Below, in pieces: positions 809-62,355 of a stretch of DNA of 64,000 nt (position 1 is the first letter of the stretch; every line of letters starts with the position of its first letter). Both the position numbers and the translations under genes were made by a program. The notes beneath the pieces were generated by a model that made no database searches, was not told the DNA's origin, and saw only the letters and a list, made by a program, of their open reading frames with translations. Source of the DNA: Raja brachyura (lineage: Eukaryota); NCBI GenBank assembly GCA_963514005.1, contig OY740801.1, positions 23,312,001 to 23,376,000 of the forward strand. Reading direction: 5' to 3'.

Positions 809-934
809 TAAAGAAGGAACTGCAGATGCTGGAAAATCGAGGGTACACAAAATGTTGGAGAAACTTAACGGGTGCAGCAGCATCTATGGAGCAAAGCAAA
901 TAGGTAACATTTCGGGCCGAAACCCTTCTTCAGA
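809..934 (-). mobile_element. Penelope-terminus mini-element with hammerhead-like core
   Basis: Reverse complement CTGAAGAAGGGTTTCGGCCCGAAATGTT; TSD CTATAGTAT at 800-808 and 935-943. Confidence 0.8.
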
Positions 935-1393
935 CTATAGTATAGTTTGCTTGGTACCGCACTCCCTGAATATCTCATGTCTAGACACCTTGGTACTAGT
1001 CCACTCTTTCCTTGTACCCACTGACAGCTGATTTTCCAACATCACAAATACTTGACACCATTTGAGGGATGGGAATTGTCTACACTCTACAGGAAATCTA
1101 AATCTGTGTACAGGAAAATAAGTCTACAGGCGATGTAATATCCCTTACAATATATTCTGCTCTGGATCACCTTGACAGTAAGAACAGCTATGTCAGGGTG
1201 CAATTCATTAATTGCAGGTCAATCTTCAGCCCCATCGCACTAAAGCAGCTCATAGCGAACCTCCTGGGGACCTCCATCTGCAGATGGCTTCTGGACTGCC
1301 TGACCTGCAGACCTCGTTCAGTTAGAGTTAGTCGTAACATTTCCTCCACCCTGATGCTCAACACTGGTGCCCCTCAGGGTTGTGTGCCCTGCT

Positions 1394-1648
1394 TAGTTCA
1401 GAGATCCAACGTGGAAACAGGCCGTTCGTTCCTTTGAGTCCGTGCCGACCAGTGACCACCCGTACACTCGCTCCATCCTACACTCCAGGGACAATTTACA
1501 GAAGCCAATTAACCTGCACATCTTTGGCAGCCACAGGAAACCCATGCAGTCATGAGAATGTACAAACTCCGTACAGCCAGTACCCATTGTCAGGATCAAA
1601 CCGGGTCTCTGATGCTGTAAGGCAGCAACTCTACCGCTGAGCCACTGT
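1394..1648 (-). mobile_element. tRNA-derived SINE (same family)
   Basis: Reverse complement of the 7208 SINE. Confidence 0.8.
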
Positions 1649-2371
1649 GCTCTACTTTCTGTGCACCCATGATCGTGTAGCTGAGTATAACACCACCTTA
1701 ATCTTTAATTCTCTGATGGTACCATTGTTGTTGGCTGGGTTAACAAGTGATAGTACAGGAAGGAGGTTGGGAATCTTGTATCATGGTGTCAGACCTATCA
1801 CCCAATCCATAACATCAGCAAAGCAAAAAAGTTGGCCGCTGACCCAAATAAACCAGGGGAGATGGTGGATGATAACCCTGTTATCAACTGCGCTGCTGTG
1901 GAGATGACCGACAGCTTCACGTTCCTAGGCATTCATGTTACCAGCAACCTAACCTGGGCCTTTCATATTGATGTGGTGATCAAGCAAACAGAGCCCTTAC
2001 TTTCTTAGGTACGAGACAATTCGGCACGTTCATGATGATTCTCTTTAATAACTACCAATGTACTACAGAAATTATCCTGCCATCGTATCAGGAAGCCTAG
2101 CCATGGATGCCCAACACCCTGGCAATTCTCTTTTCTCTCTGTCACCTTCCGGGAGAAGATATGGGAGCCTGAAAGCCCAGACATCCAGTCTTGAGAACAG
2201 CTTCTTTCCCACTGTTATCCAACTCCTGAACCAATCACTCTTCACGTCGCTCTCCCAGAGGTGCACCTCTCCCTCATTTGTTTAGTCTGTTAATGCACTA
2301 CTTTAGATTGCACTACGATGTTCATACTATTCTGCTGCTTTGCATTCATGTTATTTACTATTTATAAGACA

Positions 2372-2650
2372 GCACAGCAGCGCAATGGTAGGGTTGCTAC
2401 TTTTCAGCGCCAGAGATCTGGGTTTGATCTTGACTAGTGTCTGTACGGAGATTATACGTTCTCCCTGTGACTCTAGGTTTTCTCCGGGTGCTCTGGTTTA
2501 CTCCAAGACATACCGGTTTGTATGTTAATTGAATTCTGTAAAATCGTTCTTAGTGTGTAGGATAGTGCTAGTGTACGGGGTGATCGCTGGTCATTGTGGA
2601 CTCAGTGGGCCAAAGGCCCGTTTCCACATTGTATCGCTAAAGTCTAAACT
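2372..2650 (+). mobile_element. tRNA-derived SINE (same family)
   Basis: Head, V-domain and tail match the 7208 copy. Confidence 0.8.
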
Positions 2651-4460
2651 ATTCTATTATCATATACACTGTTTACTCTGTGAGCTTCATGCTAAAAATA
2701 AATGTCATTGCACCCCAGTGTACACCACAAACTAGTTTGAATTTGATGCGAACACTCCCATCTCCAAGTACCCCGGCAAATCACTCGCCATCCTGACTTG
2801 GAAAGAATACATCCACTGGACATTGGTTTTACCGAGAACATACCCTGGAATGAATGAAAAACATTTCTAACCCTTGCTTAGCTCTATTTTTCTGGACTCA
2901 AGGAAAGCCAGCCAGTTCTGAAGTATTGAAAGTAGCAATCCAAACTCACCAGCACCCTGCACAGACTCGACCTTCTCCTCCATATACATGCTTAATTTCA
3001 GGTCTCGCCACACCAGTTCCTAAAGCTGCAAGCAGTAGCTAGGTCGCACGTTAATAGAACAGCCTGTATATAGTTTCCTTCCCCTCACTTGAATATTTCA
3101 TCAAGTATCGAAAATCAACTGCATGTAACATGCACTTCCTGTTTATGCACGGTGCCTCTTAAAACATACCATCACACCGAAACTAGTGAAAATAATTTAA
3201 CCAAATTCCATCTATGAGCAACACCCACTTGTATGTAAACTACATAACAAATTCAAAAGCAAACCGACTTGGAGTCCTTGTGTAAACAATTCAGGTAAAT
3301 TCTCAGTCAACTGAAATGTGATCACGGGAATGTAGATTAGCAGAGTCCAAATAAATTCCGTCAGGCGAATGCTTCAAATGGTGCTTAAACTTGACTTTAT
3401 GAACTTGAAATGAAGGCCCCTGCAAATTCACACCAAACATGATTAAGCACAAATTTCCTATTGCGACAGGATCGCTATTAATCATCTATTTAAAGTTATT
3501 TAATTTCAGTTACACCCCCAGCATCATATCCTTTTGGTTCCATGGTATTTGTTCCACATTTGTTTTGTCAGTAACTAATTTCTACATAATTGCAGATGAA
3601 CAGACGATTCATAGTTACAACTGAATTGAAGGACTGCATGGTTTTGCTCTGGGCAGAATATCACAAATTCAGGCACCCTTGAGATTTATGGCTCTCCAAA
3701 GGTTTACTGATAAATTTTCCATATCACCAGTGCCCTTCAGCACTGGGTGGAGATAAACAATGTCAGCAGCAAGGATAAGGGAAGATTTATACACAAGTGT
3801 AGACAGTATAAACAGGACTTATCTGTTGCATCTGAAACATACAGAATCATGCATTTAAAACTTGACATTACCTGGACAGAGGTTGTATTGATTCTGGGAG
3901 CGATCCAATTTGCATGACAGTGACAAGATAACCACAGGGAATGGCCATGTGGCCCATCATTATTTAACCATCTACAATGACTATACAGCATCCGAATGCT
4001 GTTTAAATGATTCGAAAGATTTGTTTATACCAGCAACCTGTACAGGTGTTTATTTTATAAACATTCACTCAAGGAAAGCTACACACCATCAACTCCAAAG
4101 TCATTTCTTTGCTTGCTACAGTTTGATCTCCTTCACTGGGTCCACTTCCACATACACTACCTTTATAAATCACCAAGTTCACTTAAACACTCCTGGAAAG
4201 CGGTCTCTCTAAAATCTATCCCCACTTCCCCATCAGCAATCGAGGAATGAAACGACATCTGCACACCCAGCTGAAGCTGGTGTGTGCCACTATAATTCCA
4301 TTCCAGAGAAACAACAGCACTTCAGATTGTGCAAGGCATTTTGTCACAACAGTAACCCAGAGAATACATTTAGATTTATTATTGTCATGTTTCCGAGGTA
4401 CTGTGAAATGCTTTTCCTTTACATGCGATATAATTTCAGTTTCCATTTAGCTCTTATCTT

Positions 4461-4483
4461 GGGGGGGGGGGGGGGGGGGGGGG
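4461..4483. repeat. Poly-G run (others at ~29513, ~36529, ~62139)
   Basis: G homopolymer of 20 nt or more. Confidence 0.9.
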
Positions 4484-5016
4484 AGAGAAGAGTTGGAGAA
4501 TTCAAATTCAGCTTTGCTTCAAACTTACAATTAAAAACAATTAATAGAAGTAGCTTGGATTAAGATGCCCTAATGCTCGAGTGGTTCAGTAGTGGCAGGG
4601 GGGTGGGAACAGCACAAATTTCCAGGTCAGTGTTCCATGTCCTACACATATGCGAGGATCTTCACCTGCCCTCCGATCTCCCAACCAATGTTGGTAATTT
4701 CCAGAGACAGCAGGGAGGAACTATACATACTGGCCTTGTCACCAGCACCTACATGCTAAAAGATTAAACAAACATAGCAAGTGTACCAGATTAACTGATT
4801 GCACAAGGTGTCAGAATAAAGTCATTTGTATGAATCACATGATGTGTACATTACAATACAAAGTAGTTTTAGTTTAGTTTACATAATTTAGAGATACAGC
4901 ATGGAAACTGGCCATTCAGCCCACCAAGTCCATACTGACCAATGATCACCTGTGGATGTGGATGTGCAAATGTAACGCTGCAACTCACTTCCACCTCCGC
5001 AACTGCAACTGCGACT

Positions 5017-5328
5017 GGGGCAGCACAGTGGCACAGCAGGTAGAGTCGCTGCCTCAGTGCCATCGACCCGGGTCCAATCCGGACCTTTGGTGCGATGTGG
5101 AATTTGCACGTTTGCCCTGTGGCTATGTTGGTTTCCTGCAGGTGCTCCAGCTTCCTCCTATTTCCCCAAAGACATGCAAGTTTGTGGGTTAATTGGCCTC
5201 TGTAAATTGTCCCAAGTGTGTGGTCAGTTAATGGGAAAGTGGGATAACAACTGCTGTGAATGGGTGATTGATAGTTGGCATGGACCCAATGAGTTGAATC
5301 CTATATCTTCATGCTATATCTTCAATCA
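5017..5328 (+). mobile_element. tRNA-derived SINE
   Basis: GGGGCAGCACAGTGGCACAGCAGG head; V-domain; (CAAT)n tail. Confidence 0.75.
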
Positions 5329-7207
5329 ATTAGGGGTAACCAACAGACACTGATCAAGCCATTGATCCACAAATCCAGGTATAATGAATAAAAGTAGATA
5401 ATTTTGGATAGCTCCACAAATCCATTTCTCTGCTACTTCCTTCAAACTGAAATGCTCAGTTTAATTACCTTACTCCAAAATATTGCCCATTACTCTCTGG
5501 GTGCAATCACTGAAGGTCACCAAGCAGCAGAAGCTGAGGCCACAAGTCTCTGAATATCGGATGGTAGCTACCGCAGCCCCAAATCAACCACTCAAGACTA
5601 CAATTCGGAAGTAGCCATCACCCAAATTATTTATTAAAAATCCCTCCTGGAACAGCCACACTATCAATTTCATCGCAAGTTCTCTTGCACTAAATGTATC
5701 TGTGCACTGTGGACAGCATGATTGGAATCATGTATAGTCTTTTCTTTGGATGACACGCAACAAAAACAAGTTTTTCACTGTACCTCAGTACACATGACAA
5801 TAAACCAAATGAAACAATTCTCAAAATTTAACACAACCATGAACATTGGCAACACTTTTTTTTAATCAAAGTTAAAGTTCTGCAACTTTTCCCAAAGTAG
5901 CTTTCATGTTAAGCTATGTGCCAAGAACCCGTTTATAGCTCCATTCACTTATATGGAAATTAATATAAACAAATCTGTTGAAGGGAAAAGGCAGACATGC
6001 CGTTTTATTTTTTAATGACCTACAGCAGCACTGCTTTGTAAACATGGGAAACCAGCTGAGCAAGAATATTTAATGCAAGTACGGACAGCGTTGCCCGAGG
6101 TCCCTGCACAAACAAACAAGTCTCAAGGGCAACAATGTCCACAGGTCGAAGCACCAATCAGCACCTGAAGAATATGTCAGTCAAACCGAGTTAGCAAGTC
6201 ACCAAAGTGCTGCCACCAGCTGGATGGAAACAGTTTTGCCACTACCCTTTTCTTCCCTCTCCCTTGTACCACAGCTCCTGGGTTAACTCTCTTGGTTCTT
6301 GGTCCTTCAAAATATTCCAACTGGAATTTAAACTGGAGGTGGTGAAGGGAGGGGTTTAGCCAGAGAGGGTTATTGGGAAGAAAGTGCCACTTTAAATTTA
6401 GTTGCATCTGGCTGGGCAACCGTGGCTTGGTGGTACATTGTGTTGCCGTTATACTTTGCATCATGAGGCTGTGTCAGCCCAGACCTGCTGGAAGAGTGGA
6501 GTGCTCTCAGCTGCCATCGCATCACTGCACACAAATGCTTCTCAGTGTATGTTAGAAAATGATTGGGGAAACAATGAAGGTGCTATATAGTCAGAACTAG
6601 AAACATTTATAATGGGGAACAAAGAAATGCTAGAACAATAAAGACTTACTCTGGTTCCGTCTTCACTGAAGGAGACAATAACTTCCCAGAAAGATTAGGG
6701 AATGAAGTTTAACGAAGAGGAGGGATTGGAGTTGTTATTAGCCTCGCTTGGCAGGGTGCAGCCTGTAGCACACATTGCACCGATCACTGGCCCGTCCAAC
6801 ACCAGTCTCTGCACATCACGCCCTGGACCAATCAATGTTACTGGAGCATCAGTGGAGGGCAGGGGCTCGCTGAAGTCTCCACACATAACCTTGTGCAGCC
6901 TGCACATGTACATTCTACATCGAGAGGCATGGTCTCAAGCTTTTGGATACGAGGACAGAGAGCTCTAGAACTAGTTAGCACTGCGGGTATCATTTTAAGC
7001 AGGGTCCAATGTATAACAAAACAATGGAATAAGCACTGCTGGAGGAAGCATACACCACATCATTTACACAAACAATGCAGGGAAGCATTCAAAGCGGATA
7101 GAATGTTGGAGGACGGTTTCGGTTTATTATTGTCCCGTGTATAGAGGAACAGTGAAAAGCTGTTTTGCATACTGTACAATCAAATCAGATAACACTATAT
7201 GTGAATA

Positions 7208-7514
7208 CGGTGGCGCAGTGATAGAGCTGCTGCCTTACAGCGCCAGAGACCCGCGTTCAATCCCGACTACGGGTGCTGTCTGTATGGAGTTTGTACGTTC
7301 TCCCCGTGACTGTATGGGTTCTCACCGAGATCTTTGGTTTCATCCTATTCTCCAAAGACGTAGAGGTCTGTAGGTTAATTGGCTTGGTATAAATGTAAAA
7401 ATCGTTCCTAATGTGTGTAGGGTAGGTAGTGTTAATGTGCGGGGATCGCTGGTCGGAGCAGAATCGGTGGGCCAAAGAGCCCGTTTCCACGCTGTATCTC
7501 TAAACTAAAACTAA
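7208..7514 (+). mobile_element. tRNA-derived SINE (HE1/V-SINE-like)
   Basis: A box TGGCGCAGTGA, B box GTTCAATCC, V-domain-like GTATGGAGTTTGTACGTTCTCCCCGTG, tail GTATCTC(TAAAC)n. Confidence 0.85.
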
Positions 7515-7581
7515 TCAAGCGAAACTCGAGCACAATAGAGCAAAGACAAAGATAAAGTGTGTAGAATATAGTTTTCAGCAT

Positions 7582-7742
7582 CGACACAAAATGCTGGAGT
7601 AATTCAGCGGGTCAGTTTGAAGAAGGGTCTCAACCCGAAATGGCACCCATTCCTTCTCTCCAGAGATGCTGCCTGACCCACTGAGTTACTCCAGCATTTT
7701 ATGTCCACCTTCGATTTAAACATCTGCAGTTCTTTCCGAAAC
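7582..7742 (+). mobile_element. Penelope-terminus mini-element with inverted 5' segment
   Basis: Inverted arms (atgctggagtaattcagcgggtcag / ctgacccactgagttactccagcat); TSD AGTT(T/C)TCAGCAT at 7570-7581 and 7743-7754. Confidence 0.78.
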
Positions 7743-9222
7743 AGTTCTCAGCATTGTAGCTTAACAGTTCCAGAGGAAAAGTCCAATGGGCTCAGTGAAG
7801 TAGGGTGGAGAATGGGGACTGTACCTTACCTTGATTAGAGGGGGGGGAGAAAACTGTTCTCGAGTCTTGTGGTGCACACCATTTTCTGGCCGATGGGAGC
7901 AGGGAGAAGGAATGACCAGGGTGGGAAAGTATCCTGGGGTAGTAAAGGAACTGGTGCATCTTCATGGCTGTTGCTTCAATGTGGTTCGTAATATTTACCC
8001 AAAGAACTTAAAGCTCTCAATCATTTCCACTTTGGCACCATTGACGCTGATTGGGGCATGTACTCCATGGAGCTCCTACATCCTGCTGACATTGATGGAG
8101 AGGTTATTGTCCTGACACCAGGATATTAAGCTCTATCTCATTCCTGTACTCAGTCTTGATATTTTTTTGTGAACCAGCCCACCAGTGCAAACATTTAGAT
8201 AGAATTAAAGCCAGATTTGGCAGCACAATGTGTATAGGGAGTAAAGTAAGGGACTGAGAACACCACCACCTTGATGCACCAGTGTTGAGGATTGTTGTGA
8301 AGGATGCGTTGTCACCTATGCTCACCGATTGGGTCAGAGTTGAAAGCTCAAAAATCCAATGGCAGAGGGGGGGAAACGGATTCCTAGGTCCAGATGTTCG
8401 GAGATATGTTTTGATGCAATTATAGTGTTGAAGGCAGAGCTATAGTTAATGTCTAATGCAGGTGTCCTTGTTTAGGTGTTCCAGAGACTAGTTTAGGGCT
8501 GCTGTGGACCTGTTGCGACAGTAGGCAAACTGAATGGATCAAAGTTGCCTGTGATGCTGGAGTTAATGTGGGCCATCAGCAGTTGACGCACTTTATGATG
8601 GCGAATGTAAGAGCTACCTGGCAGTAGTCATTAAGGTAGCTACCTTCATTGGTATCGGGACAATAGCGGTCTTCTAAAATGTGTGACTATGTAAAATAAG
8701 ATGGTGACTTCAGAAGGGATCGGTGAGAGATTCAAGATGTCCTTGATCACCTCTGCCAGCTGATCCGCACGTCTTGAGGATGTGACATGAGTCTCCATCC
8801 AGATCAGCAAGATAAACCAGTGGAGCAGTTACCAGTCGTAGCACCAACGCTACCTTGCCATGTTATACAATGAGAACAACGGGTTGTGAAAACAATTCTG
8901 TCAGTCTTTCCACGATCACTAACACTCAATTTGAGCAGAGAAAACGCCCATTTAACATTTCCATAAATGTCCACTGCAACAGCGAAGTAGCTTTTCTGTG
9001 CTGATTAGATCCAGTGCTTTGATCTAGTATCAATAGCAAACTCACAACTTCCTGCACCAAGCACAGGCCAAACCTAACTGACCACCAAGGTCAGAAATAG
9101 AACTTTGCAGCAACATGTGCTTGTGACATTTCTTGCACAATTCCTAATTGACCCACTGAAAATCAAACACAAACAAAACACCCAAGGTGATATTTTGATG
9201 TGACAATCAATCGTACACTTGC

Positions 9223-9955: not shown

Positions 9956-10224
9956 ATTCAATATAGACTTTAAGGCACTTAACGAGGTCTCGCGTGGTAG
10001 GCTTTCTTACCATTATCTATTGTGTGGCCATCTACAGGGAGTTATGGATTTGTCCCACAAGATCCAACTGTACATCAATGCTGTTAAGGTTCTCATTATA
10101 AACTTTACACTTTCCCTTTGCATTCAACCTCCCAAAGTGCAACACCTCACATTTGCCAGATGAAAATAATTCTGCCATTTTGCCACCCTTATCCATAACT
10201 GATCTATATCCTGCTTCATCCTTT

Positions 10225-10480
10225 TCATTGTCGGTATTACTCGTTATCACCTAGCCCACTGCCAACAATGGACCATTCTGGGCTCCACCTTTTCTTGATC
10301 TTTAATCTACTTGTTCTATATCTCCCATTTCCCTTTCCCGTGACTCTCAGTCTGAAGAAGGGTCTCGACCCAAAATGCCACCTATTCTTTTTCTCCAGAG
10401 TTGCCGCCTGACCCGCTGAGTAACTCCAGCTTTTTGCATCTATCTTTGGTTTAAACCAGCATTTGCAGTTCCTTCCCACA
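10225..10480 (+). mobile_element. Penelope-terminus mini-element
   Basis: CTGAAGAAGGGTCTCGACCCAAAATG core; 14-bp TSD CTGCTTCATCCTTT at 10211-10224 and 10481-10494. Confidence 0.85.
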
Positions 10481-10779
10481 CTGCTTCATCCTTTGACAAT
10501 CTTCTTCACGGTCCCCAATTGGACCAACTTTAGCGTTACCTGCAAATATATTAACCACCCAATCTACATTTACATCCACTGCTGTCTTCTAGGTTGTAGG
10601 CCAACTCTAAATCCAAACTATCAGGTCACCCTGGATCCCATACATATTTATTGGATCACATATATTCTGGATCAGCGCACCTTGAGGAACCTTGTCAAAT
10701 GTCTTAAAGTGCACACAGACATCCATGGCCCGCCCCCTAATCACTTTTATCATCTCAAAAGATGCAGTCCAGTGTCATA

Positions 10780-12390
10780 CAGTGCATTCAGAAAGTATTC
10801 AGACCCCTTCACATTTCCCACATTTTGTTATGTTACAGCCTTATTCTAAAATGGATTAAATTATTATATTTTTATCATCAATCTACACACAATACCTCAT
10901 AAAATAAAAGTAAAACAGGTGTTTAGAATTTTTTGCAAAGTAATAAAAAAGATAACTGAAATATCACATTTATATAAGTATTCAGACCCTTTGCTATGAC
11001 ACTCAAAATGAGGGCTTTGGTACATCCTGTTCCCATTGATTATCCTTGAGATGTTTCTACAACTTGATTGGATTCCACCAGTGGTAACTAAAATTGATTG
11101 TACATGATTTGGAAAGGCACACACCTGTCTCTATAAGGTCCCGCAGTTGACAGTGCATGTCAGAGCAAAAATCAAGCCATGAAGACTAAGGAATTGTCCG
11201 TAGACCTTCAAGACAGGATTGTGTCGAGACACAGTTCTGGGGAAATGTATACAATAATTTCTGCAGCATTGCCGGTCCCAAAGACCACAATGGCTTCCAT
11301 CATTCTTAAATGGAAGAACTTTGAACCCACCAGGACTCTTCTTAGAGCTGGCCGTCAGGCCAAACTGAGCAATCAGGGGAGAAGGGCCTTGGTCAGGGAG
11401 TTGACCAAGAACCCGATGGTCACTCTTTCAGAGCTCCAGAGTTCCTCTGTGGAGATGGGAGAAATTTCCAGAAGGACAATTATATCTGCAGCACTCCACC
11501 AATCAAGCCTTTATGGTAGAATGGCCAGACGGAAGCCACTCCTCAGTAAAAGGCACATGACAGCCTGCTTGGAGTTTGCCAAAAGGCACCTAAACAAGAT
11601 TCTCTAGTCTGATGAAACCAAGATTGAACTCTTTGGCCTGAATGCCAAGTGTCACGTCTGGAGGAAACCAGGCACCGCTCATCACCTGGCCAATACCATA
11701 CCAACGGTGAAGCTTGGTGGTGTCTAGCATCATGCTGTGGGAATGTTTTTCCAGCGGCAGAAACTGGGAGACTAGTCAGGATCGAGGGAAAGATGAACGG
11801 AGCAAAGTACAGAGAGATCCTTGATAAAAACCTGCTCCAGAGCATTCAGGACCTCAGACTGGGGCAGAGGTTCACCTTCCAACAGGACAACGACCCTAAG
11901 CACACAGCCAAGACAACGCAGGAGTGGCTTTATGACAAGTCTGTGAATGTCCTTGAGTGGCCCTTGAGTGGCCCAGCCAGAGCCCGGACTTGAACCCGAT
12001 TGAATATCTCTGGAGGGACCTGAAAATAGCTGTGCATCGACGCTCCTCATCCAACCTGACAGAGCTTGAGAGGATCTGCAGAGACGAATTGGAGAAATTA
12101 CCCAAAAACAGCTGTGCCAAGCTTGTAGTCATACCCAAGAAGACTTGAGGCTGTAATTGCTGCCAAAGGTGCCTCAAAGTACTGTGTAAAGGGTCTGAAA
12201 ACTTATGTAAATGTGGTATTTCAGTTATATCTTTTTAATTACTTTGCAAAAATTTCTAAACACCTGTTTTTGCTTTTTTATTATGGGGTATTGTGTATAG
12301 ATTGATGATTTAAAAAAATATAATCCATTTTAGAATAAGGCTGTAACGTAACAAAATGTGAAGGGATGTGAATACTTTCTGAATGCACTG
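10780..12390 (+). mobile_element. Tc1 DNA transposon (DD34E, ~200-bp IR/DR TIRs), full-length but decayed
   Basis: TA|CAGTGCATTCAGAAAGTATTCA...TGAATACTTTCTGAATGCACTG|TA. Transposase starts at 11179 (MKTKELSVDLQDRIV..., ARRKPLL, SDETK, QQDNDPKH, WPSQSPDLNPIE) and carries stops and frameshifts. Confidence 0.97.
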
Positions 12391-12789: not shown

Positions 12790-12888
12790 TGTAGACAAAA
12801 GTGCTGGAGAAACTCAGCGGATGCGGCAGCATCTATGGAGCGAAGGAAATAGGCAACGTTTCGGGCCAAAACCCTTCTTCAGACTGAT
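12790..12888 (-). mobile_element. Penelope-terminus mini-element with near-intact hammerhead-like core
   Basis: Reverse complement CAGTCTGAAGAAGGGTTTTGGCCCGAAACGTTGCC. Confidence 0.8.
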
Positions 12889-28442: not shown

Positions 28443-28594
28443 AAGGGTTGAAGAAGAAGGGTTTATGTCTGAAGATGGGTTTTGGCCCAAAACGGTGCCT
28501 ATCACCTTCGCTCCATAGATGCTGCTGCACCCGCTGAGTTTCTCTAGCATTTTGCGTACCCTCGATTTTCCAGCATCTGCAGTTCCTTCTTTAA
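28443..28594 (+). mobile_element. Penelope-terminus mini-element
   Basis: 15-bp TSD CACAATAATTTACAG at 28428-28442 and 28595-28609; stuttered 5' end (gaagggttgaagaagaaggg). Confidence 0.85.
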
Positions 28595-28717
28595 CACAAT
28601 AATTTACAGGTTGTTTCCCCTGCTTCAGACCAGACAAGAAACATTGCCTACCCAAATCCCCCAGAGATGCTGCCTGACGCACTGAGTTATCTTTTAGAAT
28701 AACCCACTGAGTTATCT

Positions 28718-43130: not shown

Positions 43131-43719
43131 TTCGGCGCCGGTCACCGGGCTCGGTTCGGTCTCCACCCACCCCTCACTGCGGGCCCTGGGCTCCTCACTC
43201 TGCTTCCCGGCGCTGACCCCCGTACTCGCCCGGCGGGCGGGCGGGCCCCGGTCTTCTCCCCCCCTGCCCACCACCCCCCTCACGCTCGCTCAGCGGGACC
43301 CCGGGCCTCCCTCCCTCACTTGGTGGGCCCGGCCTCTGCTCTCGGTCTGTGTGCCTCGGCCCCCGGCCTCTCCCGTTCGCTGGGCCGGCCCCGGGCCTGT
43401 TTCCCCGCACGGCGGCCACCCCCGGCCTCTCTCCCTCGCTCCCCTCAGTCGCTCCCCCGGCAGCTCCGCGCCGCCATCACTCGACTCGCGATGACGTAAC
43501 CCGTCTCCCGGCGCGCCCGCGCGGCCCTGGAGACGCTGCATAGCAACCGTGCGCCGCATGCGCGGCCGGCCGCTGCCACTGCGCGTGCGCGTTGCTAACA
43601 GGCGGGGGTTGGGCTTGGCTGCTATGCGCGTGCGACCCGGCGGCGGGATAATGCACTCCCCCAAATAATGCAACGCCAGCACGGCGATATTTAAACAATG
43701 CATTGACTACCTCTCTCCC

Positions 43720-44175
43720 TGCAGAAGAGTCCTAACCCGAAACGTCGTCTATCGACCTAGAAACAAAGAACTGTAGATGTCGGTTTATCCCACACAAGGT
43801 GCTGAAGTATTCAGTCTTTCCAATATCCTGGCCACGTAGCATCGCTGGAGGAATAACTAGGTGTCATTTTTCTCCAGAGTTTCTGCCCGGCATCCAGCAC
43901 TTTGTGTTTATTGCCGCCTATCCACGTTCTTCACATATATATGCTCCCTGATCATCTGAGTTACTCCGGCACTTTGTGTTTGTTCTTGTAAACCAGCATT
44001 ATGTAGTTTCTATGCGGAGGAAGGAACTGGAGATGCTGGTTTAAACCGAAGATAGACACAAAATGCTGTACTGAAGAAGGGTCTAGACCCGATACGTCAC
44101 CTATTTATTCTTTGCAGAGATTCTGCCTGCCTGATGAGTTACACCAACATTGTGTCTATCTTCGGTAGTTTCTAC
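43720..44175. mobile_element. Cluster of 3-4 Penelope-terminus mini-elements abutting the CpG island
   Basis: Multiple core and arm copies in both orientations; the youngest (44013-44164) has TSD GTAGTTTCTA at 44003-44012 and 44165-44174. Confidence 0.75.
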
Positions 44176-45020
44176 ATTGTTGTGCTCTCGAAAGATAACT
44201 TCCCAAATATATTTAACGTGGATACCAAGATATCCGCACAAATGCACGTCGACTACCGTTAAGTGACCGCTTCCCAATAGAAAAAGTACCAGTATAAGTT
44301 GGGTGAATCAGTCGCATCGCATATTCGCGGCAACTGGCTAAATTAAAAGACACCAACAAACTCCGTACAACGCAAACTCAAATATCTGCAGGTGCTACCA
44401 ATTTGAAGCAAAAGCAGAGAAAATACTGGAAGCACGCGGCAGCTCCTGTAGAGAGAGAAACATAGCTAACATTGCAGGTCGAAGGCCCTTCTTCAAAACT
44501 GGGAGAGGGAAATAGTTGTAAGAAGGATGGAGTCGAGAGGGAAATGGATGGGACGAGGTCAGGATTACCCACAAGATCCCAACACAAGCGTGTCTGTGTG
44601 GGGAAATCAGTGCCCAGCCTCTTATTGCTTCCTCACACGACTAAAGGACGCGCCAAGTCAACTAAGCACAGTGCAGGCAAGTTAAAGCGAAGCCCGATGG
44701 CGGCTTCTACCTCTGGTGCGTTGCAATTGTCCATCGAATAGACCGGGAACCCGACGTTGCCGATGGGAGGGCAGATGCTGAGGAACGGTTCACCTTGTGG
44801 TTCTCCGGGGCTGAACCGATGAACAGGTCAATAGAAGGCCTGGAGTGGCAACGCCCACTGCCCTTCTTTAGGAAACGTCTCAACAAATAACAAAAGGAAA
44901 TTCAAACCAAGTGGCAAAGCTCAATACCAAAACCGATTAAAAACAAAGACGCCAAACATTCACCTGGAACAAAGCCATAATGTCACCAAGAAGGACAGGC
45001 GCCAGGTGAAGAATTAAGCC

Positions 45021-45110
45021 GGGGGTTACACAAAAAGCTGGAGAAACTCAGCGGGTGCAGCAGGAGCGAAGGAGATAGGCGCCGTTTCGGGTCGAGACCC
45101 TTCTTCAGCG
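45021..45110 (-). mobile_element. Penelope-terminus mini-element
   Basis: Reverse complement CTGAAGAAGGGTCTCGACCCGAAACGG; TSD ATTAAGCC at 45013-45020 and 45111-45118. Confidence 0.8.
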
Positions 45111-45129
45111 ATTAAGCCCCCCGCCGCCG

Positions 45130-45380
45130 CTGTCATTGGCTAACAAGGAACAGGTTGCTTTGCTTTCATTGATCGAGCTGGAGGCCGTGGTCGAACTTAG
45201 TCCTGATTTCACTGGCCGAGCCGAAGATCCTGATTTCATTGGCTGAGCTGGAGGGTCCTCATTTCACTGGCCGAGCCGAAGATCCTGATTTCATTGGCTG
45301 AGCTGGAGGGTCCTGTGAGTTTTGACGAAAGGTCACCCCTGCTTTCATTGGCGATGAGGCAATCTTTCACTGATTGGTCG
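45130..45380. promoter_or_regulatory. Tandem CCAAT-box (ATTGG) array including a 55-bp x2 repeat
   Basis: ATTGG at 45135, 45238, 45293, 45347, 45373 and ACTGG variants at 45211, 45266. A 55-bp unit (27+28 subunits) repeats across 45201-45315. Confidence 0.55.
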
Positions 45381-47093
45381 TGTTGGAGGAGACAGACCAT
45401 GACTTCCATTAGTTGGGATGGAGGTTTGCTGAGACACTCCTGTCCTGGCGCCGCTGGGTTGGGCGACGGGTTGCTCGCTCGTACCTGGCGGATAATTTTC
45501 CTCCAGCACTTAGTGTCCACGCACCTGACCTGCTCGGTGGGCGGGCCAAACTCTCCTAACCGAAGGCACAATGCTGCTTATCTGGACATCATCAGTAGAG
45601 CGTGGTTCCTGATGGCTGGCAGCTCTTCCCCGTCCTGGCTTCTCGTGGTCCATATCCATGCGCTTATCTAAAAGCTTCTTAAACACCACACCTGGCAGCA
45701 CGTCCCAGGCACCTACCGTAAAATAACGTTGCCCCACTCACCGAAAAGGTATGCCCTCTAATCTTTGACATTTCCACCCTTTGACAAACATTCTGACCTG
45801 TCAACCCCGTCTACATATCATCATTTTATGTTCTTTGTTCCTCGTTTGTTTGTTGGCATTTACACTGCTTCAGAAACTCAGACTCAGCAAATTTCATATG
45901 GATCCTCTCCAAAATCAAAAGCTGTAAGATTCCATCATCTCAGAACCTTCTGCCGGATTATCTAATTCACGTTTTATCACATTTCTTTTGGGAGATATAT
46001 TTTACTTAAATCCTTAATAGAGTCTGAAGGAAGAAAACCGCAAAAGTTGTCTGTCCATTCCCTCCACTGATGTTGCCTAACAATTGATTTCCTCCAGCAC
46101 TTCGTGTTTTGCTACATGTCTGCCCAGCGTTTCAAGATCCGTTTAAAAGTTACGTTGCACCATTTATGGACACAGGTAACTAATGACATTCTTGTCCAAC
46201 CTGTTGCCTGGTTAAGGTTCATCGATGGGTTCCTCCGGTTCTCCACCTAACACACGTGATGGATGTTGACCAAAACACCCACCCATTAATTCATCCCTGG
46301 GGTGGTCAGTGATTTTCTGAATCATTGGTTCTGCTCTTGACTGACTGCCTTGTACCATCATTACTGAATAACTCTCCCAATCTACCACAATTATTTCCTG
46401 TGTCCCTTTATTTGCTTCCAATCTATTTCATCAAATTATTTATTTCTAATGATGACAGAGACCTTGGAGATTAATCTTTTCCCTTTTTGCAGATGTTAAT
46501 CAACATGCTAACATTTCCAGATTTGATTTCTGGTTGCCAGATCTGTGCTATTTTATATTCTTAAACTTCAGAATCATACAGCACAGACGTAGGCCCTTTA
46601 ACCCAACTAGTCCATGCCCTCCAAGTTGTCTACCTGAGCTAGTCCCATTTGCATGTATTTGGTCCATATCCCTCTAACCTGTTGCTATCTATTTGTTGTT
46701 CAAATGCTGTTTAAATATTATTATTGTGCCTGCCTCAACTACTTTCTCTGGCAGCTACTCCCTCAGTGTGAAAAAGGTGCCTCTCGGATCCCGTTTAAAT
46801 CTTTCCCGTCTCACTTCAAACCTGTGCCCTCTAGTTATATACTCCCCTTTCCTGGAAAAAAAAGCTGCCACAAGGTTTTGCTGAAAGTTGGTTTATCTTT
46901 TCAATCTGTATTCCAATATTTTGGCAATGACTAAGATTTCTCAGTGGCTTGGAGCAAAGCCACATCTTGTTTTGATCACCAAAGAATATCCTTGGGGAAT
47001 CCTAAATAATTTTAGAGCAATTGGAACAGCAATAAAGTACACACTTGTTTCATAAGGAAGAATTTGAATTTCTATCACCTCTTTCAAGATGTA

Positions 47094-49415: not shown

Positions 49416-50921
49416 TAGTTTACCTGTGTTTTTTAACGTCATTTTATGAGAAACCACATAGAAGTTTGCACACACAATTGCATGGGGTTGTAGATTTACA
49501 TGGAATGAGTAAGGAAGGAATTTAGGAATAATCAAGTCTTTTGCAGATTGGCAGACTGCCATTACAGTGCAGTTCTACAAAGATCAATGCAGCATGAAGA
49601 AAAACTGCAGTCGCAAGAAATCTGAAATAAAAGTAGACAATATCGTAACTCTCAAAATGTCAGGCAGCTTCTGTGGAAATAGGAACAGAGTTATTTCAGG
49701 TCAAAGAGTGAGAATAAAAGCTGCAGGAGAAACACATTCCCTCCGCAGATGCTGCCTGACCCGCTGAGTTCCTTCAGCGCTTAATTTTATTATTCAAAAT
49801 TCCAGCAACTGCAGTTTCTAGTTTCTCCACTTCAGGCCGAAGACCTCTTTTCAGGAAAGTGAGAAAATTAGTTAGTTTCCAGTTGCAGAGAAAGATTATG
49901 CAAGGAAGGAGGAAATGGGTAAGTCAAAGGGAATACCTCTGATAGGGTTTCTGATATCTGGTGCAAGTCCTAATTTGATGCCCTACAAAGCAAGAAAGGA
50001 GAGTGAACTGTGAGGGATCAAAAAGTCCGGAATGTGGCATGGACACATTAAACGAGTGAGCAACAAGTTTGCAAAAAGAGCATAATATTGGAAAATGTGT
50101 GATTATTCACTTTGCTAAGAAGAGGTATACAATATTTTGAAAAGCTGAGAAATGAGTTGATGTACTGTGGGATCTTCTTATGTTGTGAAATGAAATGTAG
50201 AACGTTTACACACAGGTAGAGCTAATAATTAGGACAAAGACTGCATTAATCTTCATCGCACAGGGTTGGAGTACATTAGTAAGGATTTATTGTAGCTGTA
50301 CATGGCATTGATGTGACCACAGATGGAGAACTGAGAGTCGATTTAATCTCTCTACTGATGGAAGAATACGGAAGGAGGCGAGCAAAGGTGTGAAGGGATT
50401 CTAGAACCAGGAAACAGAATACCAAGATGAGGGTGACACAAGGAACTGCAGATGCTAAAATCTTAAACAGTTTCCTTGAGTAACTCAGCAGCATCTGTGG
50501 AGGGAATGGACAGATAACATTTCAGGTCAGGACCCATTGCAATAGCTCAACCCAATAGCTCTCACCTATCCATCCCCTCCAATAATTGGCACATTATCAA
50601 TTCATGAGGAATGTTTTGCAATCAGTGGGTGGTTGGGGTGTGGAGTATCAGGGGCAGTAATGTACTCAAATTCACATTTACTCAGAGCACATTTATAAGG
50701 TTCTTAAATGAAATAATTTGCAGGGCTCTGGGACAAGAGCAAGGAAGTGGGACTCGATGGTTCGTGTTGCACATCACCACTATAGCACAGTACACCTCTT
50801 ACAACTGTGATTTCATGATCTTCTATTGTACAACTAACTAGTGTTTGAATTGCAGTCACTGTAATATGGCTGTCATTAAATACAATCCAAAAATGAACTG
50901 GCAGTGATACTGAAGGAGATA

Positions 50922-52506: not shown

Positions 52507-53142
52507 TATTGGCCAAAACAACAACTAGCCTGTTCCTCTTCAAAATAATGTCATAAATTACATCCATCCGGGTGCATGACAGGTTGGTTTAACATCTCGT
52601 GTTGGAGCAGGCAACGGAGAGAGTGCTTTGCATCTATTGTACTCGAGTGGTTTGTGTTTATAGGGTTGGATGGAACTTGAACCTTCCGATTCAGAGGCAA
52701 GACAATGGCCTATGTAGCCACAGCTGATAAACACATGGGCTCACAAACAACATGAATTTATATAGCGCCCAAAGAGAAAAACATCAACACTTCAAAAGCA
52801 TTATCCAAACAAAGCAAACTAGTAGCCAGGTGAACTGTTTTTCATGGAGCTGAACTCCCAGCTTGTCTTTAACTATCACCATGGGAATTGAATGTATCAC
52901 CAATTCAGTATATGCTGCAACTAACATTGCATCCGAATGACACACCACGGAACATGATTCTTCAAGCATTGCACTGGAAATGTCAATCTGGAATACTCCT
53001 AGGACTCAAACTCATAACATTTGGCGTCAAATGGGAACCTCGGACAAGGTGGTAACCCCACTGTGGGAATGATGGAGAGTAGTAGTGAGTTATGACCCAG
53101 TCAAGCACTGAGGGCAGGTCACTCACACTGCAGTATATGTGA

Positions 53143-53275
53143 ATCAGTCTGAAGAAGGATCTCGACCCAAAACATTACCTATCCATGTTCTCCTGAGATG
53201 CTGCCTGACCCACTGAGCTACTCCAGCACTCTGTGTCTGTTTTTGTAAACCAGCATCTGCAGTTCCTTGTTCTCG
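53143..53275 (+). mobile_element. Penelope-terminus mini-element
   Basis: CAGTCTGAAGAAGGATCTCGACCCAAAAC core; near-TSD GT(A/G)TATGTGA. Confidence 0.75.
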
Positions 53276-53391
53276 TGTATGTGACTGGTTGTTTTCTGCA
53301 TCCGACTTTCTCATCAACTGGAAAGCAGCAAACGATACTTTCAATAATGAATAAATTAACAAAACGAAACAAATTGCAGTTGGAGAATTGT

Positions 53392-54332: not shown

Positions 54333-54819
54333 CTGGCAAGCAGACAAGGAACAAGGTTTAGGAATTGCAAAATCCCTTATGCCCCACAATAATCATTTAC
54401 ACAGAAATAATCATTTACCTGGAAAGTGTCTAGGTTTTGCTACATACAAAGAATGGAGAGAATATAGGCGACAAAATCTAGGATGGTTTTAAGGTCCCGT
54501 TGGTAAACAGGATCAATGATGAAGACTCCCAATTTGCAGACACCCAGATAAGGGAAAGAAAGCATACCGTGCTGGAGTAACTCAGTGGATCAGTCAGCAT
54601 CCCTGCAGAACATGGATAAGTGGTATTTCGGGTCAGAACCCTTCTTCAAACTGATTGCGTGGGGTGAGGGGAAGAAAGCTGAAAGAGAGGAGGGACTGGA
54701 CAAAGCCTGGCAGGTAATAGGTTGATACAGGTGAGAGTTTTTTTAACAGGCTGATGGTGGACATTGGCCAGAGATGAAAAGACAGAAGGTGTGTGGCAAA
54801 AGGATTGAGGAGTTGCAAG

Positions 54820-55312
54820 TCACCCCGGTCACTCCGTCTTTTTCCCCCTCTCCCATCAGGCAAGAGGTTCAGAAGTACGCATACCTCCAGGTTCAGGGAC
54901 AGTTTCTTCCCAGCTGTCATCAGGCAACTGAACCATCCTCTCACCAACTAGAGAGCAGTCCTGAGCTGCCCCAGCGACGTCTTTGGAGAGCCTTGGACTA
55001 TCTTTTATCGGAATTCACTGATCTTTATCTTGCACTATTATTCCCTTTATTCTGTATCTGTACACTATGGATGGCTTGATTGTAATGTGTAGGAAAGAAC
55101 TGCAGATGCTGGTTTAAATCGAAGATAAACACAAAATGCTGGAGTAAGTCAGCGGGACAGGCAGCATCTCTGGAGAGAAGGAATGGGTGACATTTCGAGT
55201 CGAGGCTGTTCTTCAGACTCGTTTGTAATCAAGTATAGTCTCTCTGCTGCAAGCAACAAAAAGCTTTTCACTGCACCTCAGTACACATGATAATAAACAA
55301 AACTAAACTAAA
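54820..55312 (+). mobile_element. Rex1/Babar 3' end with nested Penelope mini-element (55087-55222)
   Basis: PLPSGKR...RFRDSFFPAVIR remnant; tail CACATGATAATAAAC(AAACT)n; nested insert flanked by TTGTAAT duplication. Confidence 0.7.
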
Positions 55313-57650: not shown

Positions 57651-58304
57651 CTGGGGTAACACTCAGGGTTAGGAACATCAGACACAACATTCCACAAACT
57701 TTGGCAGCAACTTCCATTGGACTTTCACTCACACATTTTAACAAACATCACATATGGTGCTGCTAAATTTGATCAGATTATTGGTCCCGTTTCCTACATT
57801 GCAGCCTGATAGTAATTTGAGTTGGAGGCACAATAAATTGCAGATGCTGGAATCTTGAGCAAAACACAAAGTGCTGCAGGAACTCAGAGGGTCAGGAAGC
57901 ATCTGCAGAGGGAATGGACAAGAGAAGTTTTTGGGTTAGGATCCTCCTTCAGACGGTTCAGAAAATTTAGTTGAGTTGTTTGCAATTTTGTGTTCTGTTG
58001 CTGCAGCAAGAACTGTTGCAAGAACTGGTTTCCGGCAAAGCATAGTTCACTCACAACTCCCAGCCAGAAGTTAAACTAAACTGCCTCGTAGTGTCATACA
58101 GTACAGGAACAGGCCCCTTAGTCCATCATGTCTGCTGAATGTAGTATTGTTCTGCATTCATCCCATTCACCCGCATTTGGCCAAATGCCTTCCCTGCCTG
58201 GACAAGTCTGGTGCTTCCTAAATGTGGTGAGAATCCCTCTCTACCACCGCCTGAAAGATTCCAACAACTCCCTGTGAAAATAAATTCCCATAGATCCCCT
58301 CTGA

Positions 58305-58730: not shown

Positions 58731-59285
58731 CACTTGCCTTATACCTTTTTTGACACTGCCACCATAGGAAAAGGTTCACCCTGCACCATCAACCCCCCAC
58801 AGAATTATGTACTGGATTATTAGGGGGAAATGTTAGTTTATTTATCCAACTAAAGCCCAGGATACCACCCATCATAGGGCCATGGGTTGCATGGTCAACT
58901 GCACCTCCACCCCAACCTACAGGAGGTGCAAGGATCACAAAGGGGCACTCCTGGTGTGTGGGACTCAGCTGATGAGCTATCAGCAGAACTTCCAAAGATT
59001 GGCTTCACAGAGACTGCAGATGCTGGAATCTTAAGCAAAACACAAAGCGCTTGAGTAACTCAGCAGATCAGGCAGCATCTGTGCAGGAGCAAAGAGGTGA
59101 CATTTCAGGTCAGGACCCTTCTTCTCAAGGGCGTCAATTTGAGCCTGGATCCCAGTGCCCCATCTGTAGTGATAAAACCTGGTCACCCCCTGAAAGAGGT
59201 GGGAGATAACAATTAATTCTGTGGTAAAGGTCCTTGCTATTGAGAGGCCGAGAAATCAACCAGAACAGTTAAACTTGTTACTTAA

Positions 59286-59650: not shown

Positions 59651-59775
59651 CTTCAACCACTTCTGGTACAAGATTTTGCTGGTGTTGAAGGTCCCCATGG
59701 TGTCGATCTCCAGGACGGTTTTGAAAGCATTGAATGATAGTCCACTGGCCGGGCAGAGGAAGTTTCCTGCAGCAC
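59651..59775 (-). CDS. DECR2: Peroxisomal 2,4-dienoyl-CoA reductase, internal exon (125 bp)
   Basis: cttgccccag|GT...AAG|gtgagc. Encodes [41 protein letters not shown] (SDR NAG region, DECR2-like). Confidence 0.95.
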
Positions 59776-59841
59776 CTGGGGCAAGAAAGGAGGATCAAAT
59801 AATGGAGTGATTGACAGCTGTAGTGATATTGCCACAGAATT

Positions 59842-60899
59842 TTCATTCTTCAGAGAATGGGGATTCCCCTCCCCCACTATAGATGAGGCTCTCAACAGGG
59901 TCTCCTCCATACCCCGCAACTGCCCTCTCTCCCCATTCCCCCACGCACAACAAGGGCAGAGTTCCCCTGGTCCTCACCTTTCACCCCACCAGCCGGCACA
60001 TACAACACATAGTCCTCCGCCAGTTTCGCCACCTCCAACGTGACCCCTCCACTCGCCACATCTTCCCATCTCCCCCCGTCTGCCTTCCGCAAAGACCGCT
60101 CCCTCCGCAACTCCCTTGTCAATTGTTCCCTTCCCTCCCGCTCCACCCCTTCCCCGGGCACTTTCCCTTGCAACCGCAAGAGATGCTACACTTGTCCCTT
60201 CACCTCCCCCATCCACTCCTTTCAGGGACCCAAGCAGTCCTTCCAGGTCCGACAGAGGTTCACCTGCACCTCCTCCAACCTCATCTACTGCATCCGTTGC
60301 TCCAGATGCCAGCTGATCTATATCGGTGAGAAGAACGGAGGCTTGGCGATCGTTTCGCCGAACACCTCCGCTCGGTCCGCAATAACCAACCCGACCTCCC
60401 GGTGGCTCAGAACTTCAACTCCCCCCCCCCATTTCGTATCCGACCTCTCGGTCCTGGGCCTCCTCCACGGCCAGAGTGAGCAACACCGCAAGTTGGACGA
60501 ACAGCACCTCATATTCCGCTTGGGGAGTCTGCATCCTCTGGGCTTAAACATTGAATTTGCTCAATTCTGTTAACCCTGGCTGTCTCCTCCCCTTCCCACC
60601 TCTCCATCAGCCCTCGGGCCCTGGCATTCCTTCTCTCTCTATCTCTCCCCCACCCAAGTCGCACCAGCTTCTCATTTTCACACTACAAACAGCTTACAAT
60701 GGCCTGTTTCCTTCATCATCGATACTTTTTTGCATATCTTTCATTCATTGTTTTTATCTCTCCACATCACCGTCTATATCTCTTGTTTCCCTGATCCCTA
60801 ACCAGTCTGAAGAAGGGTCTCGACCCAAAACGTCGCCTATCTCCTTCGCTCCTTAGATGCTGCTGCACCTGCTGAGTTTCTCCAGCCTTTTGTGTACCT
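59842..60899 (+). mobile_element. Penelope-like element, 5'-truncated (GIY-YIG endonuclease + terminal pLTR)
   Basis: CNRKRCYTC, FTCTSSNLIYCIRCSRCQLIYIGE, RF.EH, LIFRLGSLHPLGLNIEF. 13-bp TSD TTGCCACAGAATT at 59829-59841 and 60900-60912. Confidence 0.93.
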
Positions 60900-60992
60900 T
60901 TGCCACAGAATTATCTTTCTATGTTACTGCATAGAAAATAAGTAATTTAATTGCTGAAAAGCAGAGATCCAAGGGCTTAGTAATTTATAGGG

Positions 60993-61210
60993 TGTGTAGG
61001 AAGGAATTGCAGATGCTGGTTAAAACCGAAGATAGACACAAAATGCTGGAGTAACTCAGCGAGACAGGCAGCATCTCTGGAGAGAAGGAATGGGTGGCAT
61101 TTCGGGTCGAGACTGTTTGAAGACAGGTCTCGACCCAAAATGTCAGCCATTCCTTCTCTCCAGAGATGCTGATGCCTCACTGAGTTACTCCAGCATTTTG
61201 TGTCTATCTT
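60993..61210. mobile_element. Inverted pair (fold-back) of Penelope termini
   Basis: ~85-bp inverted arms AAGATAGACACAAAATGCTGGAGTAACTCAG...CTGAGTTACTCCAGCATTTTGTGTCTATCTT around the core. Confidence 0.8.
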
Positions 61211-61529
61211 TGGGTTAATAATTTAGTACCTTTTAGAAGTCTAAGTTATTTGGTCTTCAACCAAAAAGCCAAAGTACTACGAGATTACGTAAGATGTTTT
61301 CAATTTATACTTTTGGGTCCTTCCTGGTCTGTGGGACTAAATTGATGACTAATTTACAAGCAGAGGGACAAGGAGACCTCCAAAGAAAGGCTTCAACTCG
61401 AGCCAGGAACCCTGCTCCCCACCTGGAGTGACAAGACATCGTAACCATGACTGAAGACGGTACTGCACAGTCACAGGGAGAGTCAGGACCATATGTTCCG
61501 CTGGATACTTGTCAATAGCGTCACGGTGC

Positions 61530-62355
61530 TTTGTCGGTCAAGAGGTGAGATTTCTTGTGATAAATATCTCCTTCGGGAAGCAACTATAACCCATTCTTTT
61601 GCCTCGTGTATAAAGTTACACAATTTCTGGAGGGGAATTTTTGAAATTTTTTCTAAAATACTTAAAATAAAATTGGACCCCGACACTAAACTGATCGAAG
61701 AAGGGTTTCGGCCCAAAATGTTGCCTATCTCCTTCGTTCCATAGATGCTGCTGCACCCGCTGAGTTTCTCCAGCATTTTGTGTACCCTCGATTTTCCAGC
61801 ATCTGCAGTTTCTTCTTTAACACTAAACTGATCACTCCAGGCATGTCAGAAGCCTGTTCTGAGCTAACATTATTTCAAAGATGTTTCTTTAATTATGGCT
61901 TGATAACGGTGAAAAAACGAATACTTAAATTTTGGAAACACACACCAGTCCCTGCTGTTAAGATGTGGATTACAAACATGTCCAAGACACTACATTTGGA
62001 AAATATTAGGCTTGTCTTGGCAGAAAAACCTGATCAATTTTTCAAGACATAGACTCCCTTCACCGAATTCTTACAAGGATAGTATAGTGCAACACAACTT
62101 TGGATTTAAATCCAACTATTGGTTGGGTGAGGTGGGTGGGGGGGGGGGGGGGGACGAGTCGCAGGTATATCTCCACTTTTTCCCCCCCTTTTTATTCTTC
62201 TCCTCTCTTACATCTTTATCCACTCTTTGGCTACACTACTTTGGTAGTCTAGGGGTCCTATCATTGCACCTCTCACTTTTTCTCTCTCTTGTTCTTTCTC
62301 TTTTCTTTTCCCTTATTTTCAAGTTAAAAAGTCAAAATTGAAGCGGTACAATAAC
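61530..62355 (+). mobile_element. L1-clade LINE 3' end (ORF2 Cys/His region + 3'UTR)
   Basis: CDK...ATITHSFASCIKLHNFW...KKRILKFWK...P.VKMW matches the fish-type L1 ORF2 C-terminus; G-run and pyrimidine-rich 3'UTR follow. Confidence 0.8.
61697..61819 (+). mobile_element. Penelope-terminus mini-element nested in L1
   Basis: 14-bp TSD ACACTAAACTGATC at 61683-61696 and 61820-61833. Confidence 0.88.

Follow-up and report, generated by a model that had tools for sequence, protein, structure and literature searches.

The stretch of DNA analysed here, referred to as the window, comprises 64,000 nucleotides of Raja brachyura contig OY740801.1 (positions 23,312,001 to 23,376,000). It contains exons of RAB11FIP3 and one exon of DECR2, both on the minus strand, as well as many copies of a short repeat, 90-260 bases long, with a hammerhead-like core, which an initial annotation had described as a dispersed family of ribozyme-bearing Penelope mini-elements. 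The repeat family is real, and its unit is the 5' leader, consisting of a minimal hammerhead and a 'tail', of an autonomous Penelope-like element (PLE); it is not a separate short interspersed element (SINE) or retrozyme. Here we describe the unit, its parent element and the ends of its copies, and weigh how the copies may have arisen.

Repeat unit and parent element

Coordinate zero is the C of CTGAAGA (hammerhead C3); window positions are otherwise stated as such. Within the window, a profile made from 79 young copies gave 30 matches, compared with zero across all loci in reversed form (1.6 Mb), and blast with four window copies gave 31 merged hits in the window, whereas a strict core pattern gave seven matches there, four of which are family members. 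All positions listed by the initial annotation were matched by the profile (809, 7582, 10225, 12790, 28443, 43720-44164, 45021, 46021, 50433, 53143, 54570, 55087, 57840, 59012, 60807, 60993 and 61697). A 28-nt core pattern has 61,311 exact matches in the 2.70 Gb genome, with 0 in the control. Screening of 62 unselected 10-kb stretches (620 kb) yielded 276 hits including fragments, 167 of these with at least 50 bits, and 4.1% of the DNA covered. The resulting density of 1 per 3.7 kb (167 hits in 620 kb) is close to the earlier estimate of about one copy per 4 kb, and extrapolation from the unselected DNA gives 0.7-1.2 million leader copies and fragments genome-wide. On this account, about 4% of the sampled DNA is leader debris and not a new ribozyme mobile element.

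A protein search for the reverse transcriptase (RT) identified many near-identical genomic copies, with open frames of up to 1,226 codons. In four of the 20 fetched loci (L168, L169, L173 and L174) a frame of about 1,203 codons is preceded by a core at 127 nt and followed by a second core at about 235 nt. L184 begins in the same way as these four full parents but with a shorter frame. The intact parent measures about 3.97 kb and reads, in order, core (0), 127-nt leader, open reading frame (ORF) of 1191 aa for RT and GIY-YIG, 235-nt 3' untranslated region (UTR) and core again, the first ATG at about +163 opening the single ORF of 1,191 aa. Because the core both precedes and follows the parent ORF, the supposed mini-element is the non-coding leader, repeated 3' as a pseudo-long terminal repeat (pLTR). 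The suspected Penelope link of the repeats is hereby borne out, the unit being the leader of an intact PLE in the same genome. The parent ORF (L167:4389-7961) is unusually long due to a proline-rich low-complexity stretch of about 300 aa before the RT.

Pfam matched the parent ORF to RVT_1 (E 3e-4) and GIY-YIG (E 2e-3), both weak and below the cut-off, and returned 0 families for the GIY-YIG fragment of the window. A CX4CX2C linker, CNRKRCYTC, precedes the endonuclease in both the parent and the window ORF. A CX2-5CxxC linker marks the Neptune and Nematis clades (PMC8557442), and endonuclease-positive (EN+) PLE insertions show a pLTR, an inverted 5' copy and a 30-40-bp tail at one end (PMC8557442, PMC3846280). 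A partial-tandem pLTR, the 30-40-bp tail and inverted 5' copies are all present here and, judged by its linker motif, the parent is an EN+ PLE of the Neptune/Nematis type. The longest window copy (59842-60899) shares 91% identity with it over 975 nt.

The parent unit matches the minimal type I hammerhead, with CUGANGA, an extra nucleotide, G10.1-C11.1, GAAA, a palindromic 15.2-16.2 and NUH, and this hammerhead-consensus haplotype is the commonest (132 of 233 cores). The extra nucleotide after A9 and the palindromic helix III are both in the consensus, in agreement with the published minimal form (PMC4209133) and with the fit proposed earlier. Helix II has 4 bp and helix I only 2 bp (GU with GC or AC); the published criterion is 3-5 bp for helix I, with 2-bp cases also listed (PMC4209133). 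Two variants of stem II had been reported as structure-preserving. Both are present, in 166 and 11 of 233 cores, yet what separates them is a U-A to U-G wobble together with a loop base, which is not a compensatory change. The Rfam hammerhead check that had been suggested gave 0 window hits at the gathering score. Among 25 hand-picked decayed subfamily copies 92% of the cells of helices I and II are paired, covariation does not exceed that of shuffles (156 of 500 reach the same level), and predicted folds (z of -1.5, -0.7 and +0.7) did not form the hammerhead and favoured a long helix in the tail. Most window cores are decayed: three of 19 retain the catalytic nucleotides, of which just one, at 12790, has stem II and the ACGU palindrome as well, and many changes are at CpG. 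Published activity of such PLE hammerheads is low or requires the PLE protein (PMC11167929). The hammerhead in these copies would be a predicted ribozyme that is carried along uncut.

Ends, duplications and junctions of the copies

The 5' ends were mapped by chaining blast hits. The end distribution comprises 137 young copies not selected for the ORF, 26 from unselected DNA and the window and 111 from exact-core loci; 44 copies from ORF-selected loci were excluded from it and kept for the variant test. The 3' ends fall at two sites about 36 nt apart, near +93 (+88..+96, 100 copies) and near +129 (+126..+135, 36 copies), and correspond to the PLE tail. At the 5' side, 69 copies end at +3..-8; of the others, 23 stop within the unit (+4..+38) and 45 reach further upstream, to -3,609. 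Hence 69 of the 114 young copies that reach the core end at +3..-8, about 40-fold the upstream rate, which is the peak at the core that the initial annotation had put forward as a test. Expressed as ends per 100 nt copied, the values are 0.5 inside, 7.2 at +3..-8 and 0.19, 0.04, 0.11 and 0.19 in the upstream bins; the unselected subset gives 1.3, 4.9 (7 of 16) and 0.7, 0, 0.07 and 0.14. About 60% of copies start within a few bases of the core, the remainder extending into 3' UTR and ORF. Genome-wide, 5,991 of 20,261 exact 50-mers retain 11 upstream parent bases, a lower bound for long copies given that one-base variants are missed. In contigs from two other organisms, in part presumed to be RNA and one of them probably DNA, loose ends likewise cluster at -4..-2.

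Exact target site duplications (TSDs) of at least 8 bp flank 38 of 140 non-inverted short copies at the genome loci, versus 0-3 of 121 in ten shuffles. Their length is mostly 8-18 bp, and the TSD mostly ends at most 6 nt from the core (27 of 38). For the window, which has no shuffle control of its own, pairs with at most one mismatch were accepted; these flank 12 short insertions and, with 13 bp, the long copy 59842-60899. The copy at 12790 and three old ones (46021, 50433 and 59012) yielded no TSD.

Neighbouring copies among 603 hits are arranged head-to-head in 89 cases, tail-to-tail in 13 and directly in 25. Counted over all subfamilies, 68 of the 89 head-to-head pairs combine a long and a short arm, as do 35 of the 44 high-scoring pairs (50% expected, p=5e-5). 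Asymmetry is almost complete among 26 young pairs, one of them duplicated: 25 are long plus short, and 22 have an outer TSD of 11-17 bp, the minimum accepted being 8 bp. Outer TSDs occur in 23 of 34 rows against a shuffled mean of 0.76, rows counting pairs twice. The two arms of young pairs have 33 non-parent bases in common, whereas 500 random pairings gave 5.1 on average and never more than 18, an excess that partly reflects subfamily. The copies at 7582, 44013 and 60993, annotated initially as single units, turned out to be such pairs (7582-7742, 44013-44165 and 60988-61214), in all of which one arm is long-ended and the other short-ended. A head-to-head stub with the same 3' flank was found at L197, L221 and L227 (G000:C1 near 3.81, 10.78 and 15.59 Mb); since stub and flank recur at three distant places, this palindrome seems to be carried within another repeat or duplication.

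The parent sequence before the core is CCAGT. Where the base preceding AGT is not C (n=4,464), it is G in 2,356 cases, A in 1,323 (obtained by subtraction) and T in 785, while 29% G is expected from flanking DNA. Mutation of C would favour T. The first 30 G loci consist of 13 inverted junctions, 10 junctions without TSD, four with a TSD and longer filler and three with a TSD and exactly one G; these three are all the junctions that directly abut a TSD, and in none does the G lie inside it. The sequence YCAGTCT fits the initiator consensus, YYANWYY.

Further observations concern the ends themselves. At the junctions of L011, L125 and L136 the initial bases of the unit recur as short repeats, and at L011 the sequence also jumps back from within the ORF to the leader, which suggests repeated re-priming at the template end. 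At L169:4141-4275 and in the window copies each 3' end follows a repeated TTCTCCAGC motif and finishes near TAAC, and AGATGCTG pairs with CAGCATCT, both conserved across subfamilies; motif and pairing may be binding and start signals of the PLE protein. A lariat branch-point stop was considered as cause of the 5' boundary and rejected, the CTGAC motif lying only about 5 nt from CAG and being absent from sister subfamilies.

Table 1. Leader copies and related insertions in the window, by window position
Feature	Position	Strand	TSD or other evidence
Solo leader stub, long 3' end, start = AGT before core	809..934	-	TSD 800-808 / 935-943
Head-to-head pair: short minus arm 7584-7614, long plus arm 7614-7742	7582..7742	both	Outer TSD 7570-7581 / 7743-7754 (1 mismatch)
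5'-truncated sister-subfamily copy, 256 bp: about 125 nt pyrimidine-rich upstream, core, tail	10225..10480	+	TSD 10211-10224 / 10481-10494
Stub, short 3' end; sole copy in the window to keep every core nucleotide, stem II and ACGU palindrome	12790..12888	-	No TSD found
Solo stub preceded by about 24 extra nt (core start partly repeated)	28443..28594	+	TSD 28428-28442 / 28595-28609
Older unit fragments	43719..44008	43719-43753 +, 43760-43869 -, 43915-44008 +	Profile match
Head-to-head pair: minus arm long-ended, plus arm short-ended	44013..44165	both	Outer TSD 44004-44012 / 44166-44174
Old decayed copy, absent from initial annotation	44384..44495	-	Profile match
Solo stub, short 3' end	45021..45110	-	TSD 45013-45020 / 45111-45118
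Old decayed copy	46021..46141	+	Profile match, 25 bits
Fragment, tail only	49735..49824	+	Profile match
Old decayed copy	50433..50535	-	Profile match
Solo stub, long 3' end	53143..53274	+	TSD 53133-53142 / 53275-53284 (1 mismatch)
Stub, short 3' end	54564..54667	-	TSD 54552-54563 / 54668-54679 (1 mismatch)
Solo stub, long 3' end; G before AGT; broken stem II	55087..55222	-	TSD 55080-55086 / 55223-55229
Older stub	57825..57965	-	TSD 57817-57824 / 57966-57973
Older stub	59012..59124	-	Profile match
5'-truncated autonomous-type copy: RT end, CX4CX2C linker, GIY-YIG, 3' UTR, core at 60807, short 3' end	59842..60899	+	13-bp TSD 59829-59841 / 60900-60912
Head-to-head pair: minus arm long-ended, plus arm short-ended	60988..61214	both	Outer TSD 60977-60987 / 61215-61225 (1 mismatch)
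Solo stub, long 3' end, start at +2	61697..61819	+	TSD 61683-61696 / 61820-61833

Other contents of the window are as follows. A RAB11FIP3 exon has 92-95% identity to the best-matching skate proteins, and the first RAB11FIP3 exon includes a 45-bp tandem repeat (42949-43067); a 27/55-bp tandem repeat was also seen (45200-45315). A broken Tc1/mariner (Sleeping Beauty-like) transposase lies at 11137-11993 (+), and fragments of long interspersed nuclear element (LINE) reverse transcriptases, presumably L2/CR1-like, lie at 18585-20061 (+), 48082-49251 (-) and 39771-40181 (+), the first two with RVT_1 matches.

Origin of the leader copies

We consider it likely that the repeats are independent insertions of the leader of an autonomous Neptune/Nematis-type PLE, made by reverse transcription that probably started inside the leader and ran off the capped 5' end. 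This reading starts from the observed parent anatomy, fixed ends, TSDs, arm asymmetry and G excess. Transcription would start at the A of the initiator-like YCAGTCT, 3 nt before the core. The PLE protein would cut both target strands and prime complementary DNA (cDNA) at +93 or +129; on the 5' leader of the RNA the cDNA would run off after about 96 or 132 nt, in many cases with a single additional G copied from the cap, and joining to the other target end would yield a solo stub. Were both target ends primed on the same template, one per site, the run-off cDNAs could join into a head-to-head pair with a long and a short arm, the end joining being helped by the near-palindrome CAGWCTG. Priming on the 3' leader copy in read-through RNA would produce ordinary truncated or full-length elements. 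The hammerhead would be carried uncut, and the inserted copies would then decay neutrally. An anole PLE was shown in vitro to prime on both strands at two internal sites with uncut RNA as template (PMC11167929), and full-length L1 insertions carry an extra 5'-junction G attributed to the cap (PMC11702581).

In its widest form this would be an undescribed 'strong-stop' mode of PLE integration, in which a single RNA serves both cut DNA ends for priming at two fixed leader sites and is copied to the cap, full-length copies require read-through RNA, the hammerhead is not used for the template's 5' end and the fossil record is hundreds of thousands of events deep; here we see the arguments for and against as evenly balanced. 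If true, leader-only stubs and long plus short palindromes would be the default product. The fixed start likely marks the beginning of the RNA and hints at how PLEs insert.

Several observations weigh against run-off synthesis from the leader. The 5'-end peak is a smear over -5..0 with no single base, and 23 of 137 ends lie inside the unit. Among the 69 short copies 27 are pair arms, counted twice, and about six may be long copies of sister subfamilies. Exact TSDs were found on only 16 of 42 and 38 of 140 solo-type copies in two sets. Variant sites in young pairs differ between the arms in 11 cases versus 13 shared. G precedes AGT in only four of 13 copies of the TSD-validated set, which was partly selected on the A/G/T pattern; in the 13 of 30 G loci that are inverted junctions the partner arm is a possible source of the G, and flanks are shared by three G loci, which hence are not independent. 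The contigs with loose ends at -4..-2 are assembled and cannot show RNA starts.

The main rival for the 5' boundary is that the CAG before the core could be a 3' splice acceptor, stubs deriving from spliced RNA whose first exon is tiny or comes from the host. Drosophila virilis Penelope starts about 120 nt upstream and has an intron that ends at helix I (PMC2377424, PMC4209133), the parent has a pyrimidine tract and CAG directly before -1, and exons ending in AG would mimic AGT starts. Splicing is nevertheless unlikely: in most TSD-flanked copies (27 of 38) at most 6 nt separate the TSD from the core, leaving no space for an exon, no recurrent upstream exon sequence was seen, and position -4 favours G, not A or C. 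Slightly less likely still is ordinary 5' truncation with a hotspot, through stalling or microhomology joining at CAGWCTG or at the folded hammerhead, pairs forming by fold-back of a single cDNA. Several pair junctions do lie exactly on the near-palindrome, self-priming has been proposed for head-to-head PLE junctions (PMC3846280), and fold-back also explains variants common to both arms. Yet partnerless, TSD-flanked solo copies share this end point, stalling at stem II would give ends near +20, outer ends should be equal after simple fold-back but are unequal in 25 of 26 pairs, and the G excess is left unexplained.

The initial annotation had offered two origins, extreme 5' truncations that stop at the ribozyme or a SINE- or retrozyme-like family mobilised by Penelope. 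Truncation at the ribozyme does not describe the ends, which are non-random and lie about 30 nt before the predicted cut, with 64 of 137 at -5..0 and five at +25..+30. Cleavage thus does not make them. The boundary does adjoin the ribozyme motif, but cleavage by a type I hammerhead falls after GUC (+27/+28), which would exclude the core; self-cleavage as source of the 5' end is already contradicted and deserves next to no weight. For a separate non-autonomous family, with stubs self-transcribed and re-copied by the Penelope protein, speak the fixed 5' and 3' ends with their own TSDs, an initiator-like start within the unit through which every stub could be transcribed, the report of retrozymes as pLTR derivatives (10.64898/2026.07.22.740005) and the existence of non-autonomous Chlamys PLEs (PMC8557442). 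We nonetheless judge such a family about as doubtful as splicing. At eight variant sites, comparison of 65 short with 73 long copies of one subfamily gave no significant difference (lowest p 0.06), no short-only family or short-specific variant was seen among these 138 copies, 16 of the 65 short ones are identical to the parent over 92 nt, and the unit forms no tandem array in the window, head-to-head neighbours outnumbering direct ones 89 to 25 among the 603 hits.

Comparison with known systems

A hammerhead in the pLTR has already been published, including solo hammerhead pLTRs (PMC4209133), and the PLE is of a known kind. The unit resembles the minimal hammerheads of metazoan PLEs (Cervera and de la Pena 2014, PMC4209133) in its CUGANGA with an unpaired nucleotide, G-C-opened helix II, GAAA, palindromic CG with UH and U-rich 5' flank. 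As here, the motifs in that source are mostly single, ascribed to truncated PLEs and in part on opposite strands. Helix I has 2 bp here and 2-6 bp in its examples, with 2 bp in Drosophila, Culex and Oikopleura. The 61,311 exact cores compare to 4,000-9,000 motifs in coelacanth and Xenopus; no cartilaginous fish was found in the accessible part of its supplement. The ends of solo hammerhead copies, which according to the accessible text were not mapped there, are mapped here.

The insertion forms of EN+ PLEs (PMC8557442, PMC3846280) are alike in 3' ends about 36 nt apart, head-to-head inversions, a tail on one arm, a TSD around the whole unit and partial tandems. Unlike published PLE forms, leader-only copies are the majority product here and have a fixed start and an extra G. 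Solo pLTRs of Adineta lack TSDs and are ascribed to recombination or deletion (PMC8557442, PMC3846280), unlike the present stubs. In the anole Poseidon PAc element (Frangieh et al. 2024, PMC11167929), both strands are likewise extended on an uncut template, with two internal start sites that follow the hammerhead; it belongs to a different clade, and its start sites lie inside the ORF, whereas the putative sites here lie in the non-coding leader before the ATG (about +163). PLE integration and pLTR regeneration are stated as open (PMC11167929, PMC2377424, PMC3846280), and in the literature searched, which covered few subscription papers, we found no description of a fixed start, extra G or two-site priming for PLEs. 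A young family with intact ORFs gives exact predictions, namely that the RNA begins at -3, that priming occurs at about +93 and +129 with one site per DNA strand, and that the ribozyme stays uncut.

Non-LTR retrozymes (10.64898/2026.07.22.740005) are similarly short, non-coding, pLTR-related and dispersed as monomers with a type I hammerhead. They are, however, defined by head-to-tail tandem hammerhead units, and the copies here, solo or head-to-head and matching an autonomous parent, are not retrozymes as defined in that source. Twin priming of L1 (PMC11702581) offers two parallels, the additional G that complete cDNAs show at their 5' junction and inverted insertions with 12-18-bp TSDs; L1 primes at its poly(A) tail and at variable internal sites, while here both primings appear to occur at two fixed sites of the 5' leader.

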